DNA of 64,000 bases, taken from assembly GCA_043823745.1 (NCBI GenBank), contig JBDRAN010000002.1, positions 6,296 to 70,295 of the forward strand, read 5' to 3'. The translations under genes and the position numbers were made by a program. Shown here in pieces: positions 17,330 to 44,669 of the stretch. Each line of letters begins with the position of its first letter. Position 1 is the first letter of the stretch. Source of the DNA: Candidatus Omnitrophota bacterium (GTDB lineage: Bacteria; Omnitrophota; Gorgyraeia; Duberdicusellales; 4484-171). The notes below the pieces were generated by a model. That model was not told where the DNA came from and did no database searches. It saw only the letters and a list, made by a program, of their open reading frames with translations.

Positions 17330-17499
17330 TTTAGCTCATTGTTCATGGTACATGAGGGATGAGGGACGACCGCTTCGCTAGGACGAAGGATGATCACGCA
17401 ATACGCACGACGCAATACGCAATACGTAGAAAAATACGCAATACCCGATGCTCAATACGCAATACAAAAAGAGAAAGTTATTTAAGATTTGCTGACAAA

Positions 17500-21198: not shown

Positions 21199-21299
21199 CT
21201 ATCGTAAATGGTCACCAGGTCACAAAGTCACAAGATCACCCGTTTTTACTGGTGACGTGGTGACATGGTAACGTGGTGACTTTTAAGTTTGTACCAAAT

Positions 21300-22921: not shown

Positions 22922-25900
22922 ATGGCTCACAGCGAGTTTGTCCACCTCCATGTCCACACCCAATACAGCCTCTTAGACGGCGCCTGTATCCTCGAGAGAC
23001 TCATCGAGAAGGCGGCAAAGTTTAAGCTTCCGGCTTTGGCGATTACCGACCACGGCAATATTTACGGCGCGATAAAATTTTATAAGCTCTGCATGGATAA
23101 AGGGGTAAAACCCATTATCGGGTGTGAAGCCTATATTGCACCAGGCTCGCGCCTTAAAAAAGAATATAAGCCCAACGAGAAGACGAATCATCACCTTATC
23201 CTGCTCGCCAAGGACGAAGAGGGGTACCACAATTTAGTGCGCCTGGTTTCGCTCGGCCATCTTGACGGTTTCTACTATCGTCCGCGTATCGATAAAGAAA
23301 TACTCACCCAGTATAGTAAGGGGCTCATCGGCTTAAGCGCGTGCTTAAAGGGCGAGGTGGCCTCAGCTATTGTCGCCGGAAGGATTAATGACGCCTATAA
23401 AATAGCTGATGAATATTTGAATATTTTCGGCCGCGGGAATTTCTATCTTGAGGTGATGGACAACGGCCTGCCCGAGCAGCATCGGGTTAACCAGTGTTTA
23501 GTTGCGATGTCTAAGGACCTGGGTATACCGATCGTATGCACCAATGATGTGCATTATCTTGAGCAAGATGAATCGTTCGCGCAGGAGGTGCTCCTGGGAA
23601 TTCAGACACAGACGACGCTCGATGACCCTAATCGTTTTAAGTTCAACAGTAACACGTTTTATTTTAGAAGCCCCGAAGAGATGCAGACGATCTTCAAAGA
23701 CATTCCGGGCGCAAGCCGTAATACGCTTGAAGTAACCCAGAAATGTAATGTAGTCATGGATTTTACAAAACTGCACCTACCGCATTTTGCCATACCCGGA
23801 GGCGAGAGCGAGGAGAGTTTCTTGCGCCGGCTTGTGTTTGAGAATGTTGCCAAGCGTTATCCGGCCGTGGGTGCTGAGGTTACGCAACGGCTTGAATATG
23901 AGCTTGGGGTGATTTCGAAAACGGGTTTTTCGAGTTACTTCATCATTGTGTGGGATCTGATTAAATTTGCCAAGGAAAATAATATTCCGGTTGGGCCAGG
24001 CCGAGGCAGCGCGGCCGGAAGTATCGTGAGTTATATTCTGGGAATTACCGATATCGACCCGCTTCGTTACGATTTACTTTTTGAGCGATTCTTGAATCCC
24101 GAACGTATCAGCATGCCTGATATCGATATCGATTTCTGTTACGAACGCCGGTCGCGCGTTCTTGAGTACGTCGGCAAGAAGTATGGTAAGGATAATGTAG
24201 CGCAAATTATTACGTTTGGAACGATGCTTGCCCGCGCGGTGGTGCGGGATACCGGTCGTGTGATGGGCTTTAGCTACACCGATGTCGATAAGATCGCAAA
24301 GATGATACCGCAGGTTCCCGGCCACCAGATCACCTTAAAAGAGGCGGTTGCTACCAATCCCGATCTTGAAGCAATTTATAATAGCGACGATAACATAAAG
24401 CGTCTTATCGATGTCGCGTCAAAACTTGAGGGCCTTTCCCGTCATGCGTCAACGCATGCGGCAGGCGTGGTTATATCAGATACGCCGCTTATTGAGCGTA
24501 TCCCCCTTATACGCGGTTCGGAAGGGGAAGTGGTGACCGGTTTCGATATGGAGTCTCTTGAGAAGACAGGCCTTCTGAAAATGGACTTTTTAGGACTTAA
24601 AACGTTAACGGTTATCGATGAAACGGTAAAGATTGTGAAACGTACCCATGGCACCATGATCGATATCCATGCGTTACCGTTCGATGATAAGAAAACGTTC
24701 CAGCTTCTCGGCGCCGGTGACACGATTGGGGTGTTCCAGCTTGAAAGCAGGGGGATGCGGGATATTTTAAACAAATTGATACCGACCCAATTTGAGGATT
24801 TGATCGCGGTGCTCGCCCTGTATCGGCCGGGACCATTAGGCAGCGGCATGGTCGATGATTTTATTGACCGCAAGAACGGAAAAAAAGGGGTTACGTATAC
24901 CCATCCACGACTTGAACCGATACTTAAAGAAACCTACGGTATTATTCTGTATCAGGAACAGACGATGCAGATTGTTTCACATCTTGCGGGTTTCAGTCTA
25001 TCCCGCGCCGATCTCCTGCGTAAAGCTATCGGTAAGAAAATTCCCGAGATAATGGAAGAGCAGCGCAACCTGTTTGTGCACGGCTGCGCTAAGAATGCTA
25101 TTTCAGCAAAGATCGCGAATCAGATCTTTGATTTAATTGATTATTTCTCGGGGTATGGATTTAATAAATGCGTTACGGGCGACACTAAAGTAATCGATGC
25201 ACAGAGTGGAGGGTTTATCACGCTGCAGGAGCTTTATGAAAATAGATCGATTGATTTTACTTTTGGGTTCAATAAAGATTTTAAAATCGAGAAACTACGT
25301 ATCATGGATGTGGTAGCAAATGGAGTAAAGTCTGTATATGCAGTAGCGACTTCGTTAGGTAAGGAAATAGAAGCTACCGCAAATCACCCTTTCCTGACCA
25401 TACATGGCTGGAAAAAATTAGAGGATCTTAAAAGTGGAGAACGAATTGCTTTGCCTCGCGTGTTCCCTTCCGTAGGCAAGGAGTCTATAGAGCCTTATAA
25501 ACTTATTGCGTTAGCGGGAATTATCTCTGAAGGCAATACGTGTCATCCTTCAGGAGTATATTTTTATGCTGCAAATCAACGTTTCTTTAATGATTTCGTA
25601 AAAAGCGTAAAATGTTTCCCGCATACGTTGCCCACTATTATAAGGCGTAGAAATATTTTCGAGGCATATTGCGGTACAGGCAGAGACGCTCGTTTTCTTA
25701 AAGGCAATATTCCCTGGAATAAGAGATGTGGTGTTAGTTGCGCAGAAGAAGTAATGATCCGTTCGGGTTTCCGGGTGTGGCTGGAAGAATTGGATCTGAT
25801 AGGGAAAAAAGCTGATGAAAAATTTATACCCGGTTTTATATTTCGACTCGATAATGAGTCATTGAAGTTATTTGTGGGGCGCCTATGGTCTGGAGATGGT

Positions 25901-27682
25901 TTTATTTTTAGCAAACAGAATACGTTGCCTTTTTATGCTTCGTCTTCACATAAGATAGCGCTTTCATTACATGACCTTTTGCTGCGCTTTGGAATCATAA
26001 GTAAGATTTATCAAAAGAAATTTAAATATCATTATAAAGGGGAAATGGATATTAAAAAAGGCTATGTGCTTATGGTGCATGGCGGAGTGAACATTGACAA
26101 TTTTATAGCGCACATTTGTCCGTATATTGTTGGTAGAGAGAAGGCGATAGTGCATCTGAAAGAATACTACAGAAAGGTTTCAAAGAATAAAGAAAGTAAA
26201 GACACTATTCCTCAAGAGATAAAATTTACAGTGCAGAGGCTTAAGGAAGAAAAAGGAATTTCCTGGAGACGTTTGCAGGGGGAATGCGGCCTCTCGATGA
26301 GAGAGTTTGTGGGAGGTGTCCACAAATATAAAAAAGGATTCAGAAGAAGCACTATTAAGAAGTTAGGAATATTTTTTGGTTCTGATGAACTTCTTTCTGC
26401 CGCGTCTTCTGAGGTGTATTGGGATGCTATCACTTCGATAAAATATGCCGGCCCTAAGCCCACGTATGATTTACAGATAGAGAAATATCATAATTTCATT
26501 GCTAATGGCATAGTGGTGCATAATTCACATTCAACCGCGTACGCGCTTATCTCCTATCAGACCGCGTATCTAAAAGCAAATTTTGGTGCTGAGTTTATGG
26601 CAGCGCTTTTAACCAGCGAACGAAATAATACGGATAAGATCCGTGAATATGTGAATGAAGCAGGCCGTATGGGTATCAAGGTGCTTCCGCCGGATATCAA
26701 TACCAGTTTTGCTAACTTTACCGTTACTGATGACGGTAATATCCGGTTTGGATTGCTCGCGATTAAAAATGTCGGTGGGGCTGCACTTACGAGTATTATT
26801 GAGGTGCGTAAAGCCGCAAAATTTGGCGGTATTTTTGATTTTTGCGAGCGCGTGGATTCACGTACGGTAAACAAAAAAGTAATCGAAAGTCTCATTAAAT
26901 CAGGAGCAATGGATACGTTTGGTCTTCGCCGCGCGCAGATGGCGGCTATTCTTGATGGGGTCTTAAGCCGCGGGGCCGGGAAAAAGGATGCTTCTCAGCT
27001 TATGTTATTCTCTGCGCCAAAAAAAGAAGTAGTTCCCGACGTGGCGGAGTGGCCGCTTGCCCAAATTCTTAATTTTGAAAAAACCCTTCTGGGTATGTAT
27101 ATCACCAGCCACCCTTTACATGCGTACGGGACGCTTGTTAAACATATCGCGCGTGAAGAAATTGCTGCTCTCTATGAAGGTGAACGGGCCGGCGAGGTGA
27201 TTGTGTGCGGGGTGCTTGAGAAGGTTAAGGTCATTACGACCCGCAAGGGTAATGACCGGATGGCGATCGTAAAGATTGAGGATGATACTGCGGGTCTTGA
27301 CGTATTTGTATTTCCCCGTCTTTTTGAAGAGTGCAATTCTTTTTTAAAAGAAAAAGCCGTCGTGCTGCTCGTGGGCAAGCTTGAGTCCAAGGAGAAAGTT
27401 CCCAAGATTCTTGCTTCCAAGGTTATCCTTATGGAAAACATCGCTGCAAGCATAAAACAGGTTAACATTACCATCGAGAAGAACAAATTCCCGCTCGATA
27501 AGCTGCGCGGTATTTTCGTAAAAAGCAGAGGTACGATCCCCGTTGTCTTTACCCTCAAAAACTCAAAGATGGAAGGCATTAAGATCAAAACAGCCAATAA
27601 TTTTTTCCTTAACCCCAGCGATGATGTGCTCAAGGAGCTCGATGCGCTCATCGGGCAGGAAAACCTATCACTTACGCTTTAA
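22922..27682 (+). CDS. dnaE: DNA polymerase III alpha subunit interrupted by an in-frame intein
   Basis: PHP domain (HLHVHTQYSLLDG) and polymerase core. The conserved GYGFNK/SHSTAYAL motif is split by a 452-aa insertion. The extein alone is about 1134 aa. Confidence 0.9.
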   Translation: MAHSEFVHLHVHTQYSLLDGACILERLIEKAAKFKLPALAITDHGNIYGAIKFYKLCMDKGVKPIIGCEAYIAPGSRLKKEYKPNEKTNHHLILLAKDEEGYHNLVRLVSLGHLDGFYYRPRIDKEILTQYSKGLIGLSACLKGEVASAIVAGRINDAYKIADEYLNIFGRGNFYLEVMDNGLPEQHRVNQCLVAMSKDLGIPIVCTNDVHYLEQDESFAQEVLLGIQTQTTLDDPNRFKFNSNTFYFRSPEEMQTIFKDIPGASRNTLEVTQKCNVVMDFTKLHLPHFAIPGGESEESFLRRLVFENVAKRYPAVGAEVTQRLEYELGVISKTGFSSYFIIVWDLIKFAKENNIPVGPGRGSAAGSIVSYILGITDIDPLRYDLLFERFLNPERISMPDIDIDFCYERRSRVLEYVGKKYGKDNVAQIITFGTMLARAVVRDTGRVMGFSYTDVDKIAKMIPQVPGHQITLKEAVATNPDLEAIYNSDDNIKRLIDVASKLEGLSRHASTHAAGVVISDTPLIERIPLIRGSEGEVVTGFDMESLEKTGLLKMDFLGLKTLTVIDETVKIVKRTHGTMIDIHALPFDDKKTFQLLGAGDTIGVFQLESRGMRDILNKLIPTQFEDLIAVLALYRPGPLGSGMVDDFIDRKNGKKGVTYTHPRLEPILKETYGIILYQEQTMQIVSHLAGFSLSRADLLRKAIGKKIPEIMEEQRNLFVHGCAKNAISAKIANQIFDLIDYFSGYGFNKCVTGDTKVIDAQSGGFITLQELYENRSIDFTFGFNKDFKIEKLRIMDVVANGVKSVYAVATSLGKEIEATANHPFLTIHGWKKLEDLKSGERIALPRVFPSVGKESIEPYKLIALAGIISEGNTCHPSGVYFYAANQRFFNDFVKSVKCFPHTLPTIIRRRNIFEAYCGTGRDARFLKGNIPWNKRCGVSCAEEVMIRSGFRVWLEELDLIGKKADEKFIPGFIFRLDNESLKLFVGRLWSGDGFIFSKQNTLPFYASSSHKIALSLHDLLLRFGIISKIYQKKFKYHYKGEMDIKKGYVLMVHGGVNIDNFIAHICPYIVGREKAIVHLKEYYRKVSKNKESKDTIPQEIKFTVQRLKEEKGISWRRLQGECGLSMREFVGGVHKYKKGFRRSTIKKLGIFFGSDELLSAASSEVYWDAITSIKYAGPKPTYDLQIEKYHNFIANGIVVHNSHSTAYALISYQTAYLKANFGAEFMAALLTSERNNTDKIREYVNEAGRMGIKVLPPDINTSFANFTVTDDGNIRFGLLAIKNVGGAALTSIIEVRKAAKFGGIFDFCERVDSRTVNKKVIESLIKSGAMDTFGLRRAQMAAILDGVLSRGAGKKDASQLMLFSAPKKEVVPDVAEWPLAQILNFEKTLLGMYITSHPLHAYGTLVKHIAREEIAALYEGERAGEVIVCGVLEKVKVITTRKGNDRMAIVKIEDDTAGLDVFVFPRLFEECNSFLKEKAVVLLVGKLESKEKVPKILASKVILMENIAASIKQVNITIEKNKFPLDKLRGIFVKSRGTIPVVFTLKNSKMEGIKIKTANNFFLNPSDDVLKELDALIGQENLSLTL
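25169..26524 (+). mobile_element. Intein with a LAGLIDADG homing-endonuclease domain inserted in DnaE (Cys1 ... His-Asn, followed by Ser+1)
   Basis: Block A CVTGDTKV directly after GFNK. A TxxH block B (ATANHPF). LAGLIDADG-like motifs LAGIISEGN and LWSGDGFIF. Terminal VVHN followed by SHS, which restores the DnaE motif. 1356 nt, in frame. Confidence 0.85.
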
Positions 27683-27816
27683 CCTAAAAAAAGGTATTCG
27701 GACTGGCCGGGCATGAATGTGCAGCCGTTACCCTGCAAAACCGACCAGGAATTTTGCAGAAAACACGATTTTGTGCTCCGTCGCACGTAGCGGCGCTTTT
27801 TTGCAGGTATGATTTT

Positions 27817-27910
27817 GGAAAAAAGCGAAAAACTCATAATTTCATGATATAATTCATAAATGGGTTTATCCGGCCTCATAAACGCAATAATCAAAACATT
27901 CATCATAAAA
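27817..27910 (+). repeat. Direct repeat copy A (about 94 bp): duplicate of the AAR-like gene's promoter plus first 17 codons
   Basis: About 93% identical to 30903-30997. Encodes MGLSGLINAIIKTFIIK then diverges to a stop after 29 aa. Confidence 0.85.
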
Positions 27911-28075
27911 CATTTAAGTCTGAAAAACCTCTCGTTAACATTAGCCGCTTAACGCATTTGCCTTTTTGTTCTAGCCCGACAAAATAGCATTCTTTTGGCT
28001 GATTTTTCTGATATAATTACGTAGGTATAATCCACTGCGGGGCATAATGCCTCTAAGCCACGGCATAAGCAAAAT

Positions 28076-29164
28076 ATGGAAAGAAAAAAAACTATTCTTT
28101 TGACCGGCGCTACTGGTCTTTTGGGTTCGTATTTATTGAAACTTTTTCTCGAAGAAGGCCATAAAGTTTATGCCCTCGCAAGAAGCAAAGATCATATTAA
28201 TGCAACCAGCAGGGTTATAAATTCCTTACGATTGTGGGATGAAACTATCTCTCCATCAAGCTATGCAGGAAAATTGATCGTAGTAGATGGTGATATTACA
28301 TCTTCTGACTTCAAAATTGAAACAAAAGAGATCATTGCACTTTTTCGATCGGAAGTTGAAATGATTTTTCATTGCGCAGCCTTAACGCTTTTTCGAGCCC
28401 CCCTAGAGATAATGCGAAAAATAAATGTAGAAGGTACTAAGAATATTTTAGATTTTTCTTTGACTTGCCTGCGGCTAAAAAATATAAATTATATAAGTAC
28501 AGCTTTTGTCGCGGGCAACAAAAATGGAATCGATTTTGACGAAAATATGTTGGAGTTGGGCCAGGGTTTTTATAATACCTACGAACAAACAAAATATGAA
28601 GTAGAAATATTGCTTAAAGATTACCAAAAAAAAGGCCTGATAATTTCTATTTTTCGTCCCAGCGTAGTAATGGGTGATTCTAAAGAGGGAAAGACTAATA
28701 ATTTCCATCTTTTTTATGAACCAACTCGTTTTTTTTCCCAAGGATTCTTTCCCGCGTTTCCTATGAATTTAGATTGTTCGTTGAACCTTATAAATATAGA
28801 TATCGCCGCTAAAGCAATTTTTATTCTAAGCGATATGGAAAAATCTGACGTTTATCATATCGTTTCCCCGGAAGATACTAATATGCATTTTTTTGCTAAA
28901 CTCGCCTCTTCTTATTTCAATTTCGAAATGCCGGAATTTATTCCTGAAGAGAAATTTGACTTCAGTGCCTGGACTGATGGGCAAAAATTATTAGGCGGAC
29001 CTTTCGTTCCTTATTGTAATTATAAGACGAAATTTGTATCACATAAAACACAACAAATTATGAGCCAATATAATTTTATATATCCTCAAATCAACGAGAG
29101 TAATCTTACTAAAATATTTGAATACTGCGATAAAGTTGGTTTTATAAAAAGGAAAAGACTATAA
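28076..29164 (+). CDS. Fatty acyl-CoA/thioester reductase-like SDR (NAD_binding_4 / male-sterility-type reductase domain)
   Basis: ILLTGATGLLGSYLL...YALAR...VVDGDIT...IFHCAA...NVEGT pattern typical of thioester-reductase domains. 362 aa. AT-rich island. Confidence 0.65.
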   Translation: MERKKTILLTGATGLLGSYLLKLFLEEGHKVYALARSKDHINATSRVINSLRLWDETISPSSYAGKLIVVDGDITSSDFKIETKEIIALFRSEVEMIFHCAALTLFRAPLEIMRKINVEGTKNILDFSLTCLRLKNINYISTAFVAGNKNGIDFDENMLELGQGFYNTYEQTKYEVEILLKDYQKKGLIISIFRPSVVMGDSKEGKTNNFHLFYEPTRFFSQGFFPAFPMNLDCSLNLINIDIAAKAIFILSDMEKSDVYHIVSPEDTNMHFFAKLASSYFNFEMPEFIPEEKFDFSAWTDGQKLLGGPFVPYCNYKTKFVSHKTQQIMSQYNFIYPQINESNLTKIFEYCDKVGFIKRKRL

Positions 29165-29171
29165 ATCAAAC

Positions 29172-30803
29172 ATGAATATCTTTTTTATACTTAGCCTGCT
29201 TATTGCAATCACTAGTTTAGGATTATCTTTTTTTCTGCTGTCTAAAACATGGCAAAAACCGGTCAATAGAGTTTTTGGCCTTTTTGCTATCAGTATAGGA
29301 GTTTGGGGTTTAGGCGGGAGTGTCATATCTATTATCCCTAAAGCTAATTATCAATTAGCTCAGTTTTGGTGGCAAATTGCTTACACCGGTATAATTCTTA
29401 TACCTGTACTTTATGCACGGTTTATTTTTGAATTCCTCGATCTGAAGAGGAAATTTTTTATTCGTACCATGTATCTAATAGGATTAATTTTCTTATTGCT
29501 AAATTGGTTCGATGGATCAAGATTTTTCTTAGGTGATTTAAAATTTATGTTTGGTCAATTCTATTGGCATGACTGGATTGAATCAAAAAGTATAAGTTAT
29601 ATTATTTTTTATCTAAGTTTTTATTGGTGTCTTCTGAGTTATCCTTTCTTGCTTTTATTATTAAATTTCAAAAAAACAACGGGATTGCGACGCGAACAAA
29701 CGAAATATATTATTTTCGGATCTATATTTGGCTGGTTGGGGGGCGAATCAAATTTTCTGCCCGATTTTGGTATCAACATTTACCCCTTTCTCAACTTACT
29801 TACGCCTTTTTACACATTGATTGTTGCCTACGCCATCCTCAAGCATCGCCTCATGGACATAGACATCGTTATTAAGAGAACAACCGTTTACTCAATTCTG
29901 GTCTCCTTAATTACTATTCTCTATTTTACAATTATTTACATCACAGAATTACTCTTTCGACGGTTTGTTGGCTATAAATCAATACCCATGGCATTGGGTT
30001 TTATTTCTCTTTTTACTTTGATATTCCAACCTCTGAAGAATTTTATCCAGTCCTTTATAGACAAATATTTCTTCAAAGGCTCGCAAGCTACCCTAGCAGA
30101 AGAACTCCAAAAAGCGCAGGAAGAGCTAAAAAGGGCTGAACGTCTAAAGGCAGTAGGCACTCTTGCTGCCGGTATGGCGCACGAGATAAAAAATCCGTTA
30201 ACAGGGATTATGACATTTACGGAGTATCTGCCTACCAAGTATACGGACCCTGCTTTTATAGAAAAATTCCATAAAATAGTTTCTACGGAAGTAAATAAGA
30301 TAAACTCAATTGTCGAACAGCTCTTAGATTTCTCTAAACCAAAACCACTGAAATTACAAGAAGCTAATATACACAATATCATAGATCAGACACTTTCTCT
30401 GCTTAATAATGACATCATTAAGTACAAAATCAATGTGAGCAGAAATTACGACAACACCTTTCCTATGCTGCATATAGACCCTAACCAAATACAACAGGTA
30501 TTTTGTAATTTTTTCCTTAATGCCATTGACGCTTTAAAAGAAGGGGGTGAATTGACCATTGCTACCCAACAGCTACCAGATAATGCTGAAATCACTATCA
30601 GCGACACCGGCCAAGGTATCCCTAAGAAAGATTTAGAACATATCTTTGACCCATTTTATACTACAAAAGAGACAGGGACAGGCTTGGGGATGTCGATTAT
30701 TTACGGAATAATTAAAGAACATAAAGGCATTATTGGTGTAGAAAGTGAGGTAAATAAAGGAACGACGTTTACGATAAAATTACCTTATTGTATCAATTTT
30801 TGA
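29172..30803 (+). CDS. Polytopic membrane sensor histidine kinase (HK1)
   Basis: N-terminal about 300 aa with at least 6 TM helices ending in YAILKHRLMDIDIV. HisKA H-box AAGMAHEIKNPL. HATPase_c (GTGLGMSII). Confidence 0.85.
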   Translation: MNIFFILSLLIAITSLGLSFFLLSKTWQKPVNRVFGLFAISIGVWGLGGSVISIIPKANYQLAQFWWQIAYTGIILIPVLYARFIFEFLDLKRKFFIRTMYLIGLIFLLLNWFDGSRFFLGDLKFMFGQFYWHDWIESKSISYIIFYLSFYWCLLSYPFLLLLLNFKKTTGLRREQTKYIIFGSIFGWLGGESNFLPDFGINIYPFLNLLTPFYTLIVAYAILKHRLMDIDIVIKRTTVYSILVSLITILYFTIIYITELLFRRFVGYKSIPMALGFISLFTLIFQPLKNFIQSFIDKYFFKGSQATLAEELQKAQEELKRAERLKAVGTLAAGMAHEIKNPLTGIMTFTEYLPTKYTDPAFIEKFHKIVSTEVNKINSIVEQLLDFSKPKPLKLQEANIHNIIDQTLSLLNNDIIKYKINVSRNYDNTFPMLHIDPNQIQQVFCNFFLNAIDALKEGGELTIATQQLPDNAEITISDTGQGIPKKDLEHIFDPFYTTKETGTGLGMSIIYGIIKEHKGIIGVESEVNKGTTFTIKLPYCINF

Positions 30804-30851
30804 TACAAGAGGTTAATTCTATTCCATACGTATACGTACAATCAATAAATG

Positions 30852-30886
30852 GCGATTCTACTAGAATCGCTCTTTGACTTTTTTGA
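30852..30886 (+). terminator. Possible intrinsic terminator after HK1
   Basis: GCGATTCTA-c-TAGAATCGC inverted repeat followed by TCTTTGACTTTTTT. Confidence 0.4.
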
Positions 30887-30902
30887 CACAGTGACGCAGA
30901 CG

Positions 30903-30997
30903 GGAAAAAAGCGAAAAACTCATAATTTCATGATATAATCAACAAAATGGGTTTATCCGGCCTCATAAACGCAATAATCAAAACATTCATCATAAAA
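30903..30997 (+). repeat. Direct repeat copy B (about 95 bp): native promoter and 5' end of the AAR-like gene
   Basis: GGGAAAAAAGCGAAAAACTCATAATTTCATGATATAAT...ATGGGTTTATCCGGCCTCATAAACGCAATAATCAAAACATTCATCATAAAA matches 27817-27910. Confidence 0.85.
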
Positions 30998-32095
30998 TTA
31001 TTGCCTCGGTTTATCCTTCGGAAATTAGGCTACAATCGAGGAATCGCTTTTATTGCTAATCTTCCTAATACGGCTTCCGTGCCTCTTTCCGTACCTTTCA
31101 GAAAGCTGGTAATCGCAATAATGCGGCAACTTTCGCCGGTTGTTGTTTCTCCCCTAGGTGGTTTTAAGAATAAAGATGGGGCGGAGGTCAAGGGGTGGGT
31201 AATCCTTTGTCTGCTCACTGCCGCCGAAATTCTAACGCATGCAGATTTCGCAAGAAAACGAGTCGTGCAGGCCGCTTGCTTGGCAGAACGCATGGGCGTG
31301 GATATTATAACATTAGGCGCTTTTACCTCGATTGTAACGCATGACGGTTTGGACTTAATAGGTAAAACAAAAGTTGGGATTACAACCGGCAATCCATACT
31401 CCGCAATCGTGGCAATTCAAAATATGCGAGAGGCTGCTCGGTTGGTAAATTTAGACATTATCAATGCAACGGTCGCAATCGTCGGTGCTGCTGGGTCTGT
31501 TGGATCAGGTTGTGCTCAGTTTCTGTTAGGAAAGGTAAAAAAGTTTTTGCTTATAGATTGGCAATATAATGCTTTGCGCGAGTTATATGATACGATTAAT
31601 CCAAAATCTACTAGTGTTGAAATGTTAAAAGATGTTCAGGGTATTGCTGCGGCTGATATTGTTATTCTTGTCACAAGTTCTGTCACCGGAATTATCGGAA
31701 AAGACTTATTAAAACCAGGCGCAATAGTAATAGACGGCGCAAATCCCCCCAATATTTCTAATGAAACGCTAAAATCAAGAAGTGATATTCTTGTGATTTC
31801 TTCCGCAATCGTAAAGGTGCCCGGTTTGCGTCATCCTTTTAATTTTAATCTGGGCTCAGGGGAAACATTCGGCTGTGTCGGTGAAGCTTTTGCTCTTGCC
31901 TGGACAAAGCATAAAGGTAATTATGCATTAGGTAAGGTTAGCGTACAACAGATGCAAGATATTGAAAGTATCGCCAGCGACGCAGGCTTTACCATCGCTC
32001 CGTTTCGTAATTCTCTTGGCTTAATTTCCAAAGAACAGATTGCTCATGTCCGTAACATAATACATTCTAATTATTTGAATACTGCGATAAAATAG
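30947..32095 (+). CDS. Acyl-ACP reductase (AAR)-family protein, homolog of the cyanobacterial alkane-pathway reductase
   Basis: Blocks ITLGAFTSIV, ITTGNPYSAIVAI, ATVAIVGAAGSVGSGCAQFL, IVIDGANPPN and FGCVGEAFALAW match AAR recalled from memory (ISALGGFTSII, FTTGNTHTAYV, ATVAVVGATGDIGSAV, LIDGGYPKN, FACFAEAML). Apparently leaderless (TGaTATAAT 7 nt before the ATG). Confidence 0.65.
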   Translation: MGLSGLINAIIKTFIIKLLPRFILRKLGYNRGIAFIANLPNTASVPLSVPFRKLVIAIMRQLSPVVVSPLGGFKNKDGAEVKGWVILCLLTAAEILTHADFARKRVVQAACLAERMGVDIITLGAFTSIVTHDGLDLIGKTKVGITTGNPYSAIVAIQNMREAARLVNLDIINATVAIVGAAGSVGSGCAQFLLGKVKKFLLIDWQYNALRELYDTINPKSTSVEMLKDVQGIAAADIVILVTSSVTGIIGKDLLKPGAIVIDGANPPNISNETLKSRSDILVISSAIVKVPGLRHPFNFNLGSGETFGCVGEAFALAWTKHKGNYALGKVSVQQMQDIESIASDAGFTIAPFRNSLGLISKEQIAHVRNIIHSNYLNTAIK

Positions 32096-32117
32096 GCTTT
32101 ATAACCAAAAATAAAAC

Positions 32118-33194
32118 ATGCCTGCAAGAAAAAAACAATCAATAAACACAATAGTAGAAAAGATCGGTGAGAGTAAAAAACGAAAAATAATAATCGATTT
32201 TTTCTCTAAAGATATAGAAAATTTTGACCAGAGCATAAAGAATCTAGAGAAAAAAACACCCCTCAAGTCTTTCCCTAATAACAAAATTTGCTTATATGTT
32301 TTCCGACTTATGAATAAGTTATTAGATAAGGCACGAGTAATTGAAGAAATAATTAGCGATAAAACGCTTTTAAAAGCGATAAAGCAAGCGTTTAGAGAAC
32401 AAATAGAATATTTTCTTGGCAAGAGCACGTTAATGCGTTGGGGGTATTATAAACCCTCCGGGCATCCCGGCGACTATGAATTAATAGAAGCATTTTATGA
32501 TAATATGCCTCTTTCCAAAGGCATAGGTTTTTGTGGTGACAAATATATTCTTCAAGACGGCTATGTAGAAGCAGTTAAAATCAGAAAAGATTTGATGCTG
32601 CAAAAACTGGCTTCTTTTATAAAGGATAATACATCAAAACATCTAAATATTATGAATCTTGGGTGCGGATCAAGCAGGGAAATACGAGAGTTGTTTTCTA
32701 CTGCTCATGTCTTAATTCCTCGCGACAAAAGAATAACATTTACCTTAATTGATTGGGACGAAAAAGCTCTAGAGTTTTCAAAGCAATCGTTATTAAAATA
32801 TCGAAGTAACGATGCTATTGAATTCATATTTTTTAAGATAAACGTGCTCGATTTATATAAAAATTCTTCTCAATATACAAAAGCCCTGATGAAGCAGGAT
32901 TTGATTTATAGTATTGGTTTGGCAGATTATATGCCAAATTTAGTTTTTGGCGAAATAATAAAATTTTGTTTTAGTTTATTAAAAAAGAAAGGTACTCTAA
33001 CTATAGCGCACAAAAATATTAAAGTGCATAAAAGTGTTGCTTCCGATTGGGCATGCGATTGGCATTTTTATCCTCGCAGTATCGAGGATGTAATTAAAAT
33101 TATTGACGAAAGTTTTGAAGACCATAAACGTAAAGTAGAAACTGTCAGTGAAAAAACAAAGCATATTTTTTTCGTGGATATAAGTAAACCATGA
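32118..33194 (+). CDS. Class I SAM-dependent methyltransferase with an about 170-aa N-terminal extension
   Basis: Motif I LNIMNLGCGSSREI, acidic motif II (TLIDWDE), and a later motif (GTLTIAH). 358 aa. Confidence 0.6.
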   Translation: MPARKKQSINTIVEKIGESKKRKIIIDFFSKDIENFDQSIKNLEKKTPLKSFPNNKICLYVFRLMNKLLDKARVIEEIISDKTLLKAIKQAFREQIEYFLGKSTLMRWGYYKPSGHPGDYELIEAFYDNMPLSKGIGFCGDKYILQDGYVEAVKIRKDLMLQKLASFIKDNTSKHLNIMNLGCGSSREIRELFSTAHVLIPRDKRITFTLIDWDEKALEFSKQSLLKYRSNDAIEFIFFKINVLDLYKNSSQYTKALMKQDLIYSIGLADYMPNLVFGEIIKFCFSLLKKKGTLTIAHKNIKVHKSVASDWACDWHFYPRSIEDVIKIIDESFEDHKRKVETVSEKTKHIFFVDISKP

Positions 33195-35260
33195 AGTCAA
33201 ATTTTTATTTTGTGTCACATTTAGCCGCAGCATTACTTGTTCTGTTTTTTTCATTCTTTGTTTTTATAAAAAATAAAAAATCAAAAGTTAATCTTAGTTT
33301 TTCAATATTTGGATCAACAATTTTTAGCTGGCTTTTATTTTCTTCTTTTGCAGCTATTTCCGCCGAAAAAGAGATGAATCTTTTTTGGTTCAAAATGAGT
33401 TATATGGGTATTATTCTTATACCGCATACTTTCTTGTATTTTGTATCGTGCGTAACAGAAAAAAAGAATACTTTTATTATATTTTTCAGTTGGCTCTATG
33501 CCTTTAGTTTCATTCTATTGTTATGGTTTACTAATTTATTTATAGTCGGTATTTATGAATATCCTTGGGGGGTTTATCCTCGTGCTTTTCCAATCTCACA
33601 CCTTCTATTTTTATCATCATTTATTATTTTGTTTGTATGCGCAATCCGTGCTTTAATCTCGAGAGTGATTGAAAAAGCTAATGTTACTACAGAAAAATTA
33701 AGAGCCACTTATATACTTATGGGAACTTTATTCGGAGTTTGCGGAAGTGTAGATTTTTTAGCTAACTATGGGATAAACTTTTATCCTTCTGGCTTCATTT
33801 TTATGATACTTTATCCTTCGATTCTAAGTTATGCCATCCTCAAATACCGCTTAATGGATATTCGCGTTGCTTTAACCCGCGCGGGAATTTTCATTGCTGT
33901 TTATACGTTTGTTTTAGGCATCCCGCTTTTAATTGGTTTCAAAACAGATAAATGGCTCTGGGCGATGCTTTTAATGGGCGTTCTTTCAAGCGTAGGGCCG
34001 TTTGTGTATAGCTATTTACGCCAACAGATTGAAAATGCGATCTTTAAGGAACAACAAAGATATCAGCAAGCCATCAAAGAATTAGCTAAACGGATGGTAC
34101 AGATAAGAGACATGGCCACTTTGTCTAAGACGATTATTTCCGATGTGTTCAAAGTCGCGCAACCGGAATTTATTGTCCTGTACATATTTTCCAAAGATAG
34201 TAAATCATACGTACTCCAGGACAACAGTATAAAAAATAATTCTACGTTTGAGACAGACATTTCAGCGGATTCAATACTCGTAGAGAATTTATCCCGTAAC
34301 AAACGGCCGGTGATTCTTGAGAGCGGTTTTTCCTTAGATTTACCGCTGGAAACGCTTATTGTGCCTTTCTTCGCGGAAAGCAGCCTCTATGGCATAATGT
34401 TTATCGGTCCTAAGCCGAAAAAGGCTGTTTATATAGAATCAGATTTCATTGCTTTTGATATTCTTTCTTCTCAGGCGTCCTTAGCCATCGAAAATTGTCT
34501 CTTCTGGCAGGAGGAAAAAACTCGAATAGCAAAAGAAGAGCAGATAAAACGAATGCAGGCCATGGATCATTTCTCTGCGGCCATGGCTCATGAAATAGAC
34601 AATCCCATCACTGCAATAGCCGGGCAATTGCGTTTGATAGAGCTTATCCTTAGCGAAAAATTTAAAGACTTGATTCCTGCCCAAGACTTAGCTGAATTAA
34701 CTACTTATGCCGGTACAACGGTAACTAATCTTGGAAGAATATCGAAAATGATAAAGGCAGTAAGGGAATTTTCCAGGCAAGATACGGGCGAATTTTCGCT
34801 TTTATCAGTGGAGGAGGCTGTCGATTTTACTTTAGCGATAGTTGGGCCGCAGGTCAAATACAAAAAAGTATCTTTCACCAAAGAAATAGAAGATAACCTT
34901 TCTGTACGCGGCAACAGGATTTATCTGGCGGAAGCTTTGATGAACTTAATCGTCAATAGTATGCATGCGGTTCAAGATAAACCGGAGTGGCAGGGAAAAA
35001 TAGATTTAAAAGTTAAAAAAGCCGGTAGAGAAAAATGTCTTATTGAAATACGCGATAATGGTTATGGTATAAAAAAACATCTTCTTGAAAATATTTTCTT
35101 AGATTTTGTCAGCACTAAGGCTTCTTCTGAAGGAACGGGGATGGGGTTAGCTAGAGTAAGAAAAATAATCCAAATGCACAGCGGCAAAGTATGGGCGCAA
35201 AGTGAAGGCGCCGGTAAAGGGGCAACTTTTTTTATCGAACTTCCCTTGGCAGAGAAATAG
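33191..35260 (+). CDS. Polytopic membrane sensor histidine kinase (HK2), paralog of HK1 with an extra cytoplasmic (GAF/PAS-like) region
   Basis: The N-terminal TM domain ends in YAILKYRLMDIRVAL, the same motif as HK1. H-box SAAMAHEIDNPI. HATPase_c GTGMGLARV. 689 aa. 4-nt overlap with the methyltransferase. Confidence 0.85.
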   Translation: MKSNFYFVSHLAAALLVLFFSFFVFIKNKKSKVNLSFSIFGSTIFSWLLFSSFAAISAEKEMNLFWFKMSYMGIILIPHTFLYFVSCVTEKKNTFIIFFSWLYAFSFILLLWFTNLFIVGIYEYPWGVYPRAFPISHLLFLSSFIILFVCAIRALISRVIEKANVTTEKLRATYILMGTLFGVCGSVDFLANYGINFYPSGFIFMILYPSILSYAILKYRLMDIRVALTRAGIFIAVYTFVLGIPLLIGFKTDKWLWAMLLMGVLSSVGPFVYSYLRQQIENAIFKEQQRYQQAIKELAKRMVQIRDMATLSKTIISDVFKVAQPEFIVLYIFSKDSKSYVLQDNSIKNNSTFETDISADSILVENLSRNKRPVILESGFSLDLPLETLIVPFFAESSLYGIMFIGPKPKKAVYIESDFIAFDILSSQASLAIENCLFWQEEKTRIAKEEQIKRMQAMDHFSAAMAHEIDNPITAIAGQLRLIELILSEKFKDLIPAQDLAELTTYAGTTVTNLGRISKMIKAVREFSRQDTGEFSLLSVEEAVDFTLAIVGPQVKYKKVSFTKEIEDNLSVRGNRIYLAEALMNLIVNSMHAVQDKPEWQGKIDLKVKKAGREKCLIEIRDNGYGIKKHLLENIFLDFVSTKASSEGTGMGLARVRKIIQMHSGKVWAQSEGAGKGATFFIELPLAEK

Positions 35261-35275
35261 AAAGGAGGATTAATT

Positions 35276-35662
35276 ATGGAGAAGCGCAAGGTTCTTATAG
35301 TGGAGGATGAACAGGACATTTGCCAGTTTATGAAAAGGATGCTTGAATTAAAAGGATGCGAAGTTTTTACCGCTCTCACCGCGCAAGAAGGCTGGGAAAT
35401 TTTTCAAAGAGAAAAGCCCCAAGCTTGCTCTATCGATATTCTTCTTTCCCATTCAGAATTTGACGGCACAGAACTTTTAAGAAGAATAAGGCAAATAGAT
35501 AAAAACGTTTTGTGCGTAATGGTAACGCGTATCGATGACAAAAAAACTATGAATGAAGTGGAAGAACTAGGGATTGACGGAATTTTCATAAAACCTCCCG
35601 CGGCAGGAGAGCTGGATAATTTAATCGACCAGCTCGCGCATGGCAAAAGAAAGGAGGCATAA
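35276..35662 (+). CDS. Stand-alone response-regulator receiver domain (CheY-like)
   Basis: VLIVEDEQD acidic pocket, candidate phospho-Asp in SIDILLS, conserved Thr (CVMVT) and Lys (FIKP). 128 aa with no output domain. Confidence 0.75.
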   Translation: MEKRKVLIVEDEQDICQFMKRMLELKGCEVFTALTAQEGWEIFQREKPQACSIDILLSHSEFDGTELLRRIRQIDKNVLCVMVTRIDDKKTMNEVEELGIDGIFIKPPAAGELDNLIDQLAHGKRKEA

Positions 35663-35664
35663 CG

Positions 35665-36000
35665 ATGGCAAATCCATTACCAAATGAAGCTGAACTTTAT
35701 GCAAGAATGGAAAAAGAGCATATCAACGTGCATCCGCTTGTATGGGAATTCATTAATCATCATGTGAGAAATGATCTTAACTGGATTACGATGTGCATAG
35801 GTTTGCATCGTTCAACGCCGCGCTGGATACTGCGGCTTGCTTCTTCTCTTATCAGCCTCTTATACAAAATCTCCCGTCAACCGGGAGAGCCGCCCCCTGA
35901 TCTTTTGAGCGCTTTTAACGGCACTATTGAGAGAGTAAAAAATATCGACAGATTTTTAAAAAATTTGCGAGAGAAAACCTGTCCTGCTTACGATCTTTAA
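35665..36000 (+). CDS. Hypothetical protein, translationally coupled to the receiver
   Basis: 111-aa ORF starting 3 nt after the receiver stop. No recognisable motif. Confidence 0.4.
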   Translation: MANPLPNEAELYARMEKEHINVHPLVWEFINHHVRNDLNWITMCIGLHRSTPRWILRLASSLISLLYKISRQPGEPPPDLLSAFNGTIERVKNIDRFLKNLREKTCPAYDL

Positions 36001-36103
36001 TAAGGCAATTCCCCGCAGCTTGCTGCGCGGTAGTTCATTTGGTGCTTTACGATTCTGATCCTGACCCACTTGACACCTGTTAAAAGGATGTTAGACTACA
36101 TTC

Positions 36104-36376
36104 ATGCGAAAACGCGATATTGTATTAAAAATCAGCCAGGATACGGGTATAAAACAGGTTGTCGTTAAAGATGTAGTGCAACGCACGTTTGATACTATTT
36201 TTGAGACGCTTAAGAACGGGAATCGTATTGAGCTGCGAAATTTCGGTGTTTTCCTTGTTAAGAAAAGAAAGAAACGCATCGGTAGAAACCCTAAAACCGG
36301 CGCGGTCGTGCCCGTCCCTGAGAGACTCACCGTTGTATTCAAGCCTGGCCTGGGAATGAAGAAGGTCTTTAGATAA
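36104..36376 (+). CDS. HU/IHF-family DNA-binding protein
   Basis: 90 aa. Signature RNFGVF...R.GRNPKTG...V...F.PG beta-arm. Confidence 0.85.
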   Translation: MRKRDIVLKISQDTGIKQVVVKDVVQRTFDTIFETLKNGNRIELRNFGVFLVKKRKKRIGRNPKTGAVVPVPERLTVVFKPGLGMKKVFR

Positions 36377-37675: not shown

Positions 37676-39054
37676 TGCGAACGCACACATGTGGAGAATT
37701 GTCGGCCGGTGACATCGGCAAAGAGGTTATCATCTGCGGTTGGGTTGCGAGTCGTCGCGATCACGGAAAAATAATTTTTATTGATATCCGTGATCGTTAC
37801 GGTATCACGCAGGTTGTTTTTTTCCCGAAACCCGATCCGGTCGTGTACGAACAGGCAAAAAAGTTGGGCAGCGAATTTGTGATACGCGTGCGCGGTACGG
37901 TCAACACGCGGCCCAAGGGAACCGAGAACCCGAAGCTTAGCACCGGTTTTATCGAAGTGGGAGCGGCTGAGTTAACCATACTTAATACGAGCGCGGAACT
38001 TGCGTTTGTTATTGATGACGAGATCGAAGCGGGTGAGGAGACGCGTCTGGTGCATCGCTATCTTGACCTGCGCAGAAAAAAGATGCTTGATAAAATGGTA
38101 TTGCGTCATCAGTTTAATCAGGCTTTACGCGCCTGCCTCGATAAACAGAAATTTCTTGAAATCGAGACCCCGTTTCTTACGAAGTCAACTCCCGAGGGCT
38201 CACGCGATTATTTAGTCCCCTCAAGGCTTAACCCGAATAAATTCTACGCTCTTCCGCAATCCCCGCAGCTTTTTAAACAGATATTGATGGTCGGAGGAAT
38301 CGATCGTTATTACCAGCTGGTACGTTGTTTTCGCGATGAAGACTTACGCCGGGACCGCCAGCCCGAATTTACACAGCTCGATATCGAGATGTCCTTTGTT
38401 GATGAGAATGATGTGATGAGCCTTGCCGAGGGCCTTATCGCGGCCGCCTTTGGCCAGGTGCTGGGCATCGAAATTAAAACACCATTTATTCGCATTCCTT
38501 ACAAAGAGGCGATGGAAAAATACGGGTCTGATAAACCTGACGTCGGCCAGGGGGAGTATCGATTCTCGTGGGTCGTTGACTTTCCACTTTTTGAATACAA
38601 TGACGACGAGAAACGCTGGCAGGCGTGTCATCATCCGTTTACCGCGCCTCAATCCGATGACGTCGGGCTTCTCGATGGTGATGTTTCAGTGGTTCGTGCG
38701 CGAGCGTATGATCTTGTTTTAAATGGTCAGGAAATTGCCGGCGGTTCGGTAAGAATACATTCTCAAGAGATGCAGGAAAAAATTTTTCAGATTCTGGGTA
38801 TCAGCGCAGAAGATGCGCAGAAGAAATTCGGGTTCCTGCTGCGCGCGTTTACCTACGGTGCGCCGCCGCATGCGGGTATTGCATTTGGCCTTGATCGTCT
38901 GTACGCGATTATTACCGGATCTGAAAGCATCCGTGACGTGATCGCGTTCCCGAAGACCCAAAAAGGAGTTTGCCCTCTCACGGAAGCGCCATCGGCAGTG
39001 GATGACGCGCAATTACGAGAGCTTTATTTGAAGTTGGTGGAAGAGAAGAAATAA
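37672..39054 (+). CDS. aspS: Aspartyl-tRNA synthetase, bacterial-type core but lacking the GAD insertion domain
   Basis: [49 protein letters not shown] is the bacterial-type motif 2 region. Motif 3 GGSVRIH. Only 460 aa. Confidence 0.8.
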
Positions 39055-39126
39055 GCGATTAGCGTTTAGCGATTAGCGGATAGTGTAGATTCCACATCTT
39101 CCTACTACACGCTACACGTTATAGGT

Positions 39127-42748: not shown

Positions 42749-42840
42749 GGGAAGGCTTCGCACCCCCTGACGGGAGGCTTCGCACCCCCCTTCGGGGAGG
42801 CTTTGCACCCCCCTTGACGGGAGGCTTCGCGCTAACTTTG
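42749..42840 (+). repeat. Tandem array of four 22-25-bp hairpin units (GGGAGGCTTCGCACCCCCCTTC-like)
   Basis: Four contiguous units. Each carries a CCCC-TTCG/TGAC-GGGG mini-hairpin. Confidence 0.8.
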
Positions 42841-42857
42841 TGACGTGGTGACTTTTT

Positions 42858-43574: not shown

Positions 43575-43716
43575 GAAAGCGATGAGCGTAAAAGCACGGT
43601 TCTATGGTGTAGGTTGTAGGGTGAAGGCTCTAGGGTTTTTAACCTAGAACCTTGAACCTGGAGCCTGAGGCTTGAAGTAAGGTGTTATCCGGTATTTATG
43701 GTATAATTACTTTTAT

Positions 43717-44211
43717 ATGAAAAGAATAAGTGAATGTATCGGTAAGGAATTGGTTTGGAAGCCGCGCCATTTTTTCAGTAACTCATATGAGCTGTTTTTT
43801 GACAGCGAGATTATTGCTCGTCTTGAGGTAGCATGGTTTCGTTTTTCTGCCAGGGCGATAACCGCTGATGGCGAGTGGAGATTTCAGTTAAAAGGTTTTT
43901 GGCAGCGGAAGATCATTATCGTTGATTCCCGTGCGAATAGAGAGGTTGGACAATGCAGCGTCAGTTGGTTGGGGAGAGCAACGTTCGTTACGTCTTCGGC
44001 GCAGGAATTTTTCTGGGTTTGGCGGGGATTTTTAGGATTAACCCACGCGTGGGTGTCGGGTGGGTCCGATATACTTCTCTTGAGATGGAAATTTTCTAAG
44101 ACTTATGTGGAATTTGGTCAAGGCGCCGATATCTCACGTTTTAGCGCGCTCCTTTCATGTCTTGGAAAATATCTTTTGATTTTGGAGCAATCGCGAAATA
44201 ATAACACATAA
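43717..44211 (+). CDS. Hypothetical protein
   Basis: 164-aa ORF with normal codon usage. No motif recognised. Confidence 0.4.
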   Translation: MKRISECIGKELVWKPRHFFSNSYELFFDSEIIARLEVAWFRFSARAITADGEWRFQLKGFWQRKIIIVDSRANREVGQCSVSWLGRATFVTSSAQEFFWVWRGFLGLTHAWVSGGSDILLLRWKFSKTYVEFGQGADISRFSALLSCLGKYLLILEQSRNNNT

Positions 44212-44225
44212 TAAGAGAGGGGCGT

Positions 44226-44669
44226 GTGATGATTTACGAAAACAGAAAAGTGGATGCGATTGAAGAAAAAGCAAAGAAAACCTTAGGCCAGACATTTTTT
44301 CCCGATGATGTTGACCCGGGAATTTTGCAGACGATCGCCTATGAGTATCCAAAGCGCGTAATTGACGTTGAATTGACAACCTCGGAGTTTACCTGCATCT
44401 GCCCTTATTCGGGCCTTCCTGATTTTGCCACCATCATTATTCGCTATGTTCCTCGCGCGCGGCTTATTGAGCTAAAATCCTTAAAGTATTATTTCTACGC
44501 GTTTCGTAATGTAAAAGTGTATAACGAGCATGCGGTCAACAAAATCCTTGAGGATTTAGTGCGCGTGGTTAAGCCCCGTTCAATGACCGTGATTGGTGAG
44601 TTTACGGTTCGCGGAGGAGCGACGAATAAAGTTACGGCGCAGTATAAAACACGAGCGTATAGCGTTTAG
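44226..44669 (+). CDS. queF: NADPH-dependent 7-cyano-7-deazaguanine reductase (unimodular type)
   Basis: Catalytic CICPYSGLPDF motif and a T-fold. 147 aa. Confidence 0.85.
   Translation: MMIYENRKVDAIEEKAKKTLGQTFFPDDVDPGILQTIAYEYPKRVIDVELTTSEFTCICPYSGLPDFATIIIRYVPRARLIELKSLKYYFYAFRNVKVYNEHAVNKILEDLVRVVKPRSMTVIGEFTVRGGATNKVTAQYKTRAYSV

Follow-up and report, generated by a model that had tools for sequence, protein, structure and literature searches.

A duplicated gene head as a probable recombination scar in an Omnitrophota island of enzyme and sensor kinase modules

The window analyzed here is a stretch of 64,000 nucleotides (64 kb) from a Candidatus Omnitrophota bacterium, and its source contig belongs to a metagenome-assembled genome. 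Downstream of dnaE, which is followed by a terminator-like hairpin and T-run (27779–27805), the forward strand carries a short repeated segment (copy A, 27817–27910), a gene for an SDR or thioester-reductase-like protein of 362 aa (28076–29164) and the sensor kinase gene HK1 (29172–30803), after which come a terminator-like hairpin (30851–30871) and T-run (together 30851–30885) 18 nt before the second copy of the repeat (copy B, 30903–30997). The rest of the island, also on the forward strand, consists of a reductase gene of 382 aa (30947–32095), called AAR-like below, a PhcB-like methyltransferase gene (32118–33194; the name follows JGI labels of proteins that are 40–42% identical), HK2 (33191–35260, 7TM-GAF-HK), a receiver-only response regulator (35276–35662) and a conserved 111-aa protein (35665–36000). 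The island ends on the right at this last gene, and the next gene, at 36104, is an HU-like gene of the host.

Island GC ranges from 0.32 to 0.43, compared to 0.47 in the host, and the left flank (27683–27816) is host-like at 0.485. The 8.4-kb low-GC block is absent from the interval between dnaE and hisS of at least 17 related Omnitrophota genomes, in which guaA, dnaE, hisS and aspS are contiguous. Such empty sites were found for the whole island only; no variant lacking just the 3.0-kb insert was present in the collections searched, where the closest homologues were at most 62–65% identical, and a scan of metagenome contigs with an exact 26-mer from the repeat gave no match and hence no strain-level variant or empty site. 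GC3 separates SDR, the methyltransferase gene and the N-terminal part of HK2 (0.28–0.29) from the AAR-like gene, the C-terminal part of HK2, the response regulator and the small gene (0.36–0.41), but it was set aside as a donor tracer because SDR genes are AT-richer than their neighbours in relatives as well. Rfam families had no matches in the window, and no tRNA genes were found there.

Copies A and B form a direct repeat of approximately 95 bp, 3 kb apart, and each contains the AAR-like gene's promoter together with its first 17 codons. Two blocks are perfectly identical, one of 37/37 positions (27817–27853 and 30903–30939) and one of 53/53 (27858–27910 and 30945–30997), while every difference falls within the 6–7 bases that separate the -10 box from the ATG, TCATAA in copy A and CAACAAA in copy B. 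An earlier sequence-only reading had located both copies correctly, and its estimate of about 93% identity proved slightly low: blastn gave 95.8% over 95 columns (three mismatches and one gap, E = 3e-40), far from a similarity below 80% or a much shorter match. When up to three mismatches were allowed, the 37-mer had two sites in the 64 kb, both of them the copies, whereas shuffled sequences lead one to expect none (n = 100), and the pair is the longest, cleanest and strongest direct repeat within the window. About 90 flanking bases are identical and all four differences cluster in 7 nt, a pattern that simple neutral decay would not produce and that counts against the recombination-scar reading favoured below; it needs either one complex mutation or selection or gene conversion acting on the flanks. 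Self-comparison of 92 related loci revealed no head duplication of this kind, which is thus not a feature of the family.

The repeats bracket SDR and HK1, as had been proposed, the interval 27911–30902 being made up of a 24-nt filler, the SDR upstream region, SDR, HK1 and the terminator-like hairpin. Simple tandem duplication of a segment does not describe this arrangement, since 27683–30902 and 30903–34000 share only the 95 bp and a further 33–36 bp, the rest being at chance level. A discrete two-gene block of lower GC flanked by direct repeats might also suggest a mobile element, with the repeats as its target-site duplication or attachment sites. Yet transposon target-site duplications are typically 2–15 bp, far below 95 bp, the ends of the insert lack terminal inverted repeats, and no island gene product matches a transposase, integrase or recombinase family, the flanked block containing SDR and HK1 only. 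Furthermore, the repeated sequence serves as the working head of the adjacent gene and is not an anonymous site, so that a mobile element carrying SDR-HK1 is very improbable.

Copy B is the genuine promoter and start of the AAR-like gene, in agreement with the earlier reading, because the N-terminus and the placement of the -10 box recur in the closest homologues. Its TATAAT (30934–30939) lies 7 nt before the ATG, and the extended -10 motif stands 7–8 nt upstream of the ATG in the window and in the related loci L001 and L005 (8 nt in both of the latter). The N-terminus MGLxGLI...IIKLLP is kept in homologues of 59–62% identity, and P20 is invariant across the AAR-like family. This leaderless layout is confined to the closest clade, perhaps with L114, and more distant homologues have ordinary leaders; within the window it is also seen at the genes at 36104 and 43717. 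In L175, a short leaderless ORF before the methyltransferase gene was considered as a decayed AAR head and rejected, as the similarity was not significant (p = 0.13–0.98).

The label 'AAR-like' stands as a distant resemblance and not as membership of TIGR04058 (long-chain acyl-ACP reductase, AAR), for which the protein scored 95.4 bits, the cut-off being 449.7. Among NCBIfam models it best matches the N-terminal part of PigE, with 134.5 bits where the cut-off is 850, and the gene may equally be called PigE-N-like. The Rossmann-type nucleotide-binding motif GAAGSVGS (G180–G186) and C310 within GCxGE of the C-terminal domain, a residue that may correspond to the catalytic cysteine of cyanobacterial AAR, do not vary among 12 homologues. 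As annotated publicly (P0001), the gene has 267 aa instead of 382 and begins 115 codons late, so that the coding portion of the repeat goes unseen.

Copy A is a truncated duplicate of this gene head. Its ORF (27860–27952) encodes MGLSGLINAIIKTFIIK, followed by HLSLKNLSLTLAA and a stop, the shared head and stop being as previously described, with a length of 30 codons rather than 29: 17 AAR-like codons and 13 that are unrelated. Neither the last 13 residues of the stub peptide nor the 24-nt filler at the new joint (27911–27934) resembles AAR-like genes or the regions upstream of SDR genes to a significant degree. Internal deletion of an AAR-like gene was rejected as the source of copy A, as the sequence after codon 17 compared with the AAR-like genes of the window, L001 and L005 remained within the range of shuffles, and a 15-nt match between 27936–27950 and 31308–31322 was at chance level. 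The extended -10 motif TTTCATGATATAAT occupies 27840–27853, with its TATAAT 6 nt upstream of the ATG at 27860, and a leaderless transcript is therefore predicted. No terminator-like site or stable structure separates copy A from SDR, and the fold of 27860–28090 was no more stable than those of shuffled sequences (z = +0.8), from which read-through would be expected. Copy A probably keeps a live promoter; its activity, its leaderless start and the read-through are predictions from consensus and spacing.

The native SDR upstream region (27935–28075) has homologues in the sequences that precede the SDR genes of L011 and L173 (z = 5.9 and 6.6) and contains the promoter motif TTTTCTGATATAAT at 28004–28017. 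The suggestion that a duplication or insertion had joined SDR-HK1 to the duplicated head fits the anatomy, but the corollary that the module had simply been put under a copied promoter is not supported in that form, because SDR has its own conserved promoter. SDR having brought its own upstream region, copy A adds at most a second, upstream promoter.

A different view would hold the repeat to be a selected regulatory unit, in which selection or gene conversion maintains an identical promoter and leader peptide so as to co-express the two sensor modules. The two perfect blocks with differences confined to the spacer are what such maintenance might produce, and the motif TTTYNTGNTATAAT occurs only three times in the 64 kb, each time before these enzyme genes, and once per locus in 8/12 related loci, directly upstream of the AAR-like or SDR gene. 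The duplicated head is nevertheless present in none of the related loci, SDR-type modules elsewhere rely on their own promoter, as SDR here can too, and the filler and the last stub residues are unmatched. Moreover, the stub ORF ends 123 nt upstream of the SDR start, making translational coupling impossible. On balance a selected unit appears unlikely, and the repeat is best read as a lineage-specific by-product of recombination and not as a designed regulatory device.

A second significant repeat, which had escaped the sequence-only reading, links 29112–29147 (T1) and 32069–32104 (T2), with 32/36 positions identical (blastn: 33 nt at 91%, E = 8e-8). T1, the intact copy, is the 3' tail of SDR (IFEYCDKVGFI), and T2 is a stub of an SDR 3' end (LFEYCDKIGFI, +1 frame) representing about the last 12 SDR codons. 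T2 overlaps the stop of the AAR-like gene, whose last 8 codons are T2 in another frame. T2 retains the synonymous codon choices of T1 and is closer to it than to the SDR tails of relatives (24–26/36), which T1 matches at 25–28/36. A similar SDR-tail stub is present in L006.

Both enzyme genes thus stand between the same head and tail, repeat-SDR-T1 and then repeat-AAR-T2. It is conceivable, though doubtful, that these heads and tails are the working flanks of a cassette-exchange system by which a population could switch the lipid-derived signal enzyme paired with a given sensor kinase, and that Omnitrophota diversify signal-receptor 'dialects' by swaps of enzyme and 7TM domain at a fixed breakpoint. 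Were this so, recombination between the two heads would leave AAR-MT-HK2 (MT, the methyltransferase gene), and recombination between the two tails would leave SDR-MT-HK2; the order SDR-MT-HK-RR, RR being the response regulator, occurs naturally in L173.

The kinases bear marks of rearrangement. HK1 combines a 7TM sensor of the SDR-associated type, 54–55% identical to those of L006 and L011, with an unrelated, AtoS/ZraS-like kinase core that lacks a GAF domain, the fusion lying at about residues 215–240, where the motif AILKHRLMDI is encoded at 29832–29861. HK2 has a sensor domain of the methyltransferase-associated type (55% to L173 and L175) and a core nearest to those of L005 and L006 (65%). 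Relationships of sensor and core are thus incongruent, as judged from identity matrices and not from formal phylogenies, with a common breakpoint at about residues 205–235 in three independent pairs that recurs at the conserved motif AILK(H/Y)RLMDI. Sensor type tracks enzyme type, and the enzyme gene and the 7TM sensor domain of the kinase are, on these comparisons, swapped as a unit in related loci.

Since the genome was assembled from a metagenome, an artefact must be weighed, in which a chimeric path through the shared 53-nt or 37-nt sequence placed SDR-HK1 falsely between dnaE and the AAR-like gene. Exact-protein look-ups for the AAR-like protein, SDR and P0001 returned no contig on record, and no second, independently made assembly of this population turned up. 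The spacer is not the same in the two copies, however, so that they do not represent a single collapsed sequence used at both sites; the whole 95-bp repeat would fit within a standard 150-nt read, and single reads should therefore bridge it; and T2 and the HK1 chimera independently show a rearranged locus. An artefact therefore has only a slight chance of being the explanation.

Taken together, the evidence favours, with a probability of roughly 0.75, the view that copy A is a recent recombination scar in a horizontally acquired island of interchangeable modules, each a lipid-modifying enzyme with a 7TM sensor kinase. The SDR-HK1 unit, with its own upstream region, promoter and terminator, sits after AAR-like codon 17 of copy A, and we infer that it was joined there and that the 95-bp head, spanning about -36 to +51 relative to the predicted leaderless start, was duplicated in the same process. 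Because no single-copy genome without SDR-HK1 was found, the insertion is read from the anatomy of the locus alone. Candidate routes are insertion with fill-in of a long staggered break, a single or unequal crossover between near-identical island variants, or replacement of an AAR-like gene that left copy A behind and was later followed by re-copying of the gene downstream. Only copy B leads on into a complete AAR-like gene, copy A being cut short, an arrangement that a Campbell-type or unequal crossover demands, which is necessary and not sufficient for such an origin. Other events of this sort at the locus, namely T2, the HK1 chimera and the incongruent kinase halves, together with the L006 stub, lend support to the recombination-scar reading.

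In its present form the locus would keep the same extended -10 promoter in both copies. Copy A would start a leaderless transcript that encodes the 30-residue peptide and would read on into SDR-HK1, in tandem with SDR's own promoter 164 nt downstream. Homologous recombination within the 53-bp and 37-bp blocks that these direct repeats share could remove the 3.09-kb unit or raise its copy number, and for SDR-HK1 either outcome is plausible because 53 bp are identical.

Taken alone, the repeat is a minor scar that can be dated. It records that a two-gene sensor module became attached very recently to the head of the gene next to it, and it offers actual sequence through which that module could be lost or amplified. 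Alongside the SDR-tail stub and the chimeric kinase, it brings to light an Omnitrophota family of units, each an enzyme with its cognate 7TM sensor, that are exchanged between kinase cores. Such exchange may be a way in which these little-known bacteria diversify lipid-based signalling.

Several features of the locus have parallels in known systems. Leaderless bacterial genes are transcribed from their start codon onward, and the layout in the window, L001 and L005, with the -10 hexamer 6–8 nt before the ATG and too little space for a Shine-Dalgarno sequence, is like theirs as far as spacing can tell. Systems of the PhcB-PhcS and CqsA-CqsS types pair a lipid-signal synthase with a membrane sensor kinase. 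Here, likewise, the gene for a predicted fatty-acyl enzyme (thioester reductase, AAR-like reductase or PhcB-like methyltransferase) immediately precedes those for a multi-pass membrane histidine kinase and a response regulator, a likeness at the level of genes in which the response regulator is receiver-only.

In the Staphylococcus aureus lpl cluster, tandem paralogues have diversified through recombination at a conserved site inside the genes (Tsuru and Kobayashi, 2008; PMC2568036). As in that cluster, the moving unit crosses gene boundaries, here comprising an enzyme gene together with the 7TM-encoding 5' portion of the kinase gene that follows it, breaks recur at one conserved motif and the two halves of one ORF disagree in their relationships, a comparison drawn here from identity matrices instead of formal phylogenies. 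Whereas the lpl variants belong to strains of a single species, the modules here are drawn from different genomes of a candidate phylum, and the left-hand joints are illegitimate and have left stubs (copy A and T2). Merodiploids and tandem duplications arise by unequal crossing-over in transformation (Johnston et al., 2013; PMC3784515), and homology-facilitated illegitimate recombination is also known (PMC3240628). Those cases were shown experimentally and involve IS-size repeats and duplications of 100–900 kb, in contrast to the 95 bp and 3-kb unit described here from sequence, yet they share with it a segment between direct repeats and the juxtaposition of an intact and a disrupted version of one gene. 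A single homologous anchor combined with one illegitimate joint would account for the filler and the stubs at this locus.

The two direct copies of the promoter and first 17 codons of the AAR-like gene, described in the sequence-only reading, are real and correctly placed, as the sequence itself, blastn and a shuffle test attest; the interpretation given with them was right in part. Copy A (27817-27910) and copy B (30903-30997) lie in the same orientation and share a 37-nt and a 53-nt block, each identical in both, separated by a spacer that reads TCATAA in copy A and CAACAAA in copy B. In a gapped blastn alignment of 95 columns (E = 3e-40) the copies were 95.8% identical, so that the earlier estimate of about 93% captured the high similarity but was slightly low. 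In the 64-kb window this is the longest and cleanest repeat, and the 37-mer, with up to three mismatches allowed, matched copies A and B only (0 expected from shuffles); that the arrangement is a misassembly appears very improbable. All four differences are confined to the 7-nt spacer, an odd clustering for which one complex mutation is the simplest account. Across the spacer, copy A reads ATAATTCATAA (27849-27859), similar to the adjacent ATAATTTCATGA (27836-27847). Its ORF, MGLSGLINAIIKTFIIK followed by HLSLKNLSLTLAA, is short, as had been noted, but runs to 30 codons, not 29.

Comparison with relatives established copy B as the original. AAR-like homologues at 59-62% identity begin with MGLWGLIKSIVRTLIIKLLP or MGLAGLIQSTFRTLLIKLLP, and P20 is invariant in 12 family members. 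In the related loci L001 and L005, TTTTCTGGTATAAT stands upstream of the AAR-like gene and ends 8 nt from the ATG, while in copy B TTTCATGATATAAT ends 7 nt from it. Because the N-terminus, the promoter motif and its spacing recur in this way, copy B is the genuine gene head, as claimed. Its promoter and start codon sit together compactly, and from their spacing a leaderless transcript is predicted. Three occurrences of the motif TTTYNTGNTATAAT were counted in the window (copy A, copy B and 28004-28017), where 0.04 would be expected; of 12 related loci, 8 have it a single time each, directly upstream of an AAR-like or SDR gene.

The organism may often use leaderless starts. Further genes have a -10-like box at a distance of 6-9 nt from the ATG, namely the HU-like gene (TAGACT-ACATTC-ATG; 36070-36106) and the gene at 43717 (TGGTATAAT-TACTTTTAT-ATG; 43700-43719); a Shine-Dalgarno core of even 4 nt was present in only 22 of 49 genes. 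In the related locus L175 (5919-6003), a 22-codon ORF, MNIQSIISFQAIKYFLKTLNNL, begins 7 nt after an L001-like promoter. Since its stop shares ATGA with the start of the methyltransferase gene, it may be a leaderless ORF that serves for coupling; its resemblance to the AAR head was without significance. Short tandem or dispersed motifs (TTAGCGGTAATTAGCG, CGTGGTGAC, ACGCAATACGCAATAC, AGCGATTAGCGTTTAGCG) also recur between genes, at the paired sites 538-590 and 57197-57248, 21248-21284 and 42828-42856, 17396-17465 and 44827-44856, and 39054-39089 and 44654-44689. Some directly abut start codons (588, 57248, 21273, 42858), and they may act as regulatory or promoter elements of an unfamiliar type.

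The repeat lies in a block of about 8.4 kb (~27817-36060) with a GC content of 0.32-0.43, against 0.47 in the rest of the window. It follows dnaE (22922-27682) and contains genes for a thioester-reductase-type SDR (28076-29164), the 7TM histidine kinase HK1 with an AtoS/ZraS-like core and without a GAF domain (29172-30803), the AAR-like reductase (30947-32095), a methyltransferase (32118-33194), the 7TM-GAF histidine kinase HK2 (33191-35260), a receiver-only response regulator (35276-35662) and a 111-aa protein (35665-36000). The HU-like gene (36104-36376), then hisS and aspS (36389 onwards), follow. In at least 17 related Omnitrophota genomes (loci L013-L036), guaA-dnaE-hisS-aspS are contiguous, with a dnaE-hisS gap of only 300-530 nt that the HU-like gene occupies in the two closest (L013, L014). 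None of these genomes has island genes between dnaE and hisS; the low-GC block is therefore an acquired, lineage-specific island. A second low-GC patch (48000-51000; 0.33-0.38), whose products are for the most part small proteins that could not be assigned, including one CxxCxxCC-domain protein, is unrelated to it. Within dnaE lies an intein (25211-26503, residues 764-1194) that includes a LAGLIDADG homing-endonuclease domain; in every related genome examined, dnaE lacks it and residue 763 directly adjoins residue 1195.

The AAR-like protein scored only 95 bits against the true AAR model (cut-off 449.7), and its top match was the N-terminal part of PigE. A metagenome-assembled genome of Candidatus Omnitrophota (locus tag ABH865_00295) encodes proteins that match the SDR, the methyltransferase and, over its C-terminal 267 residues, the AAR-like protein with 100% identity. 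As publicly annotated, the AAR-like gene begins at Met116 (P0001, 267 aa), 115 codons too late, omitting 30947-31291; homologues support the full 382-aa ORF. The methyltransferase family includes members, at 40-42% identity, to which JGI gives the label of biosynthesis proteins for 3-hydroxypalmitic acid methyl ester (PhcB-type quorum signal), a hint that each module may pair a signal synthase with its receptor.

The 24 nt after codon 17 of copy A had no significant match in comparisons with AAR-like genes and SDR upstream regions. Homology to the native SDR upstream regions of the related loci L011 (z = 5.9) and L173 (z = 6.6) begins at 27935. Because the motif at 28004-28017 lies inside this homologous region, the SDR-HK1 unit came with a promoter of its own, and a terminator-like hairpin (30851-30871) likewise belongs to it. 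Between copy A and the SDR gene neither a terminator nor an unusually stable structure was found, and a copy A transcript would read through into SDR-HK1. The proposal that the module was put under a copied promoter survives with copy A as an extra upstream promoter, but not as the cassette's sole one, since the unit has its own. That the repeats are the ends of a mobile element is scarcely credible, because the insert lacks terminal inverted repeats and no island gene product matches a recombinase family. In loci L010-L012, the SDR 5' untranslated region holds a 73-nt segment (7893-7965) that recurs inverted (81%) at 2468-2540, 5.4 kb upstream, within the span of a Wzy_C-domain gene (1386-2720), and may represent a small element, either mobile or structured.

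A second pair of repeats involves the SDR tail. T1 (29112-29147), encoding IFEYCDKVGFI, recurs as T2 (32069-32104) in 32 of 36 nt. T2 overlaps the AAR-like stop in a different frame and reads LFEYCDKIGFI; the C-terminal signature of the SDR family is FEYCDKxGFI. Synonymous codon choices common to T1 and T2 are not shared by the tails of SDRs at 60-63% identity (25-28/36 against T1, 24-26/36 against T2). The last eight residues of the AAR-like protein come from T2, in place of the native ...DKN stop of its relatives. Given the natural order SDR-methyltransferase-HK-RR in L173, T2 is most simply explained as what is left of an SDR gene formerly located ahead of the methyltransferase. The present order is copy A, T1, copy B, T2, each enzyme gene being flanked by the same head and tail. 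The same kind of scar is found in another genome: L006 (6838-6960) carries a frameshifted SDR 3'-end stub (…FKYPDIDDDYLYKII* / NYCKKFKYIK) about 80 nt upstream of an intact SDR.

Self-comparison of 92 related loci revealed no repeated enzyme-gene head. This absence, and the meaningless sequence in which the stub ORF ends, speak for a lineage-specific accident and against any conserved function; that the repeat is a selected co-regulation unit is unlikely. We put at roughly three in four the probability that copy A is a recent recombination scar with a working promoter, as predicted from its sequence. The SDR-HK1 unit could have inserted at codon 17 with fill-in duplication; a single or unequal crossover could have joined near-identical island variants (cf. 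PMC3784515, PMC3240628); or copy A could be left over from a replaced gene and have been re-copied afterwards. All three routes would yield the same end state. No relative closer than ~60% amino-acid identity turned up in the collections searched.

Within the acquired island the locus is a mosaic. Across the related loci and the window, 7TM sensor domains cluster by the enzyme gene directly upstream, with identities within type of 87% for the AAR type (L001, L005), 54-61% for the SDR type (HK1, L006, L011) and 49-55% for the methyltransferase type (HK2, L173, L175). The cytoplasmic parts group quite unlike the sensor domains (up to 90% against 30%), pairing L001 with L175 (90% identity), L011 with L173 (90%) and L005 with L006 (84%). 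Three independent pairs show a jump in identity at residues ~205-235, a shared switch point that coincides with the conserved motif AILK(H/Y)RLMDI and at which HK1 also switches partner. Enzyme gene and sensor domain seem to move as one unit. Four components of the window locus, the AAR-like gene (61%), HK2 core (65%), response regulator (78-81%) and small protein (66-67%), have their nearest counterparts in the L005-type module or in L006, its near-twin; the AAR-type sensor domain is missing from the window. The repeat is a fresh instance of an already known kind of event, and the swappable enzyme-sensor units around it are a more notable lead than the repeat itself. The locus behaves like the lpl genes of S. 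aureus, tandem paralogue clusters that have been diversified by recombination (PMC2568036).
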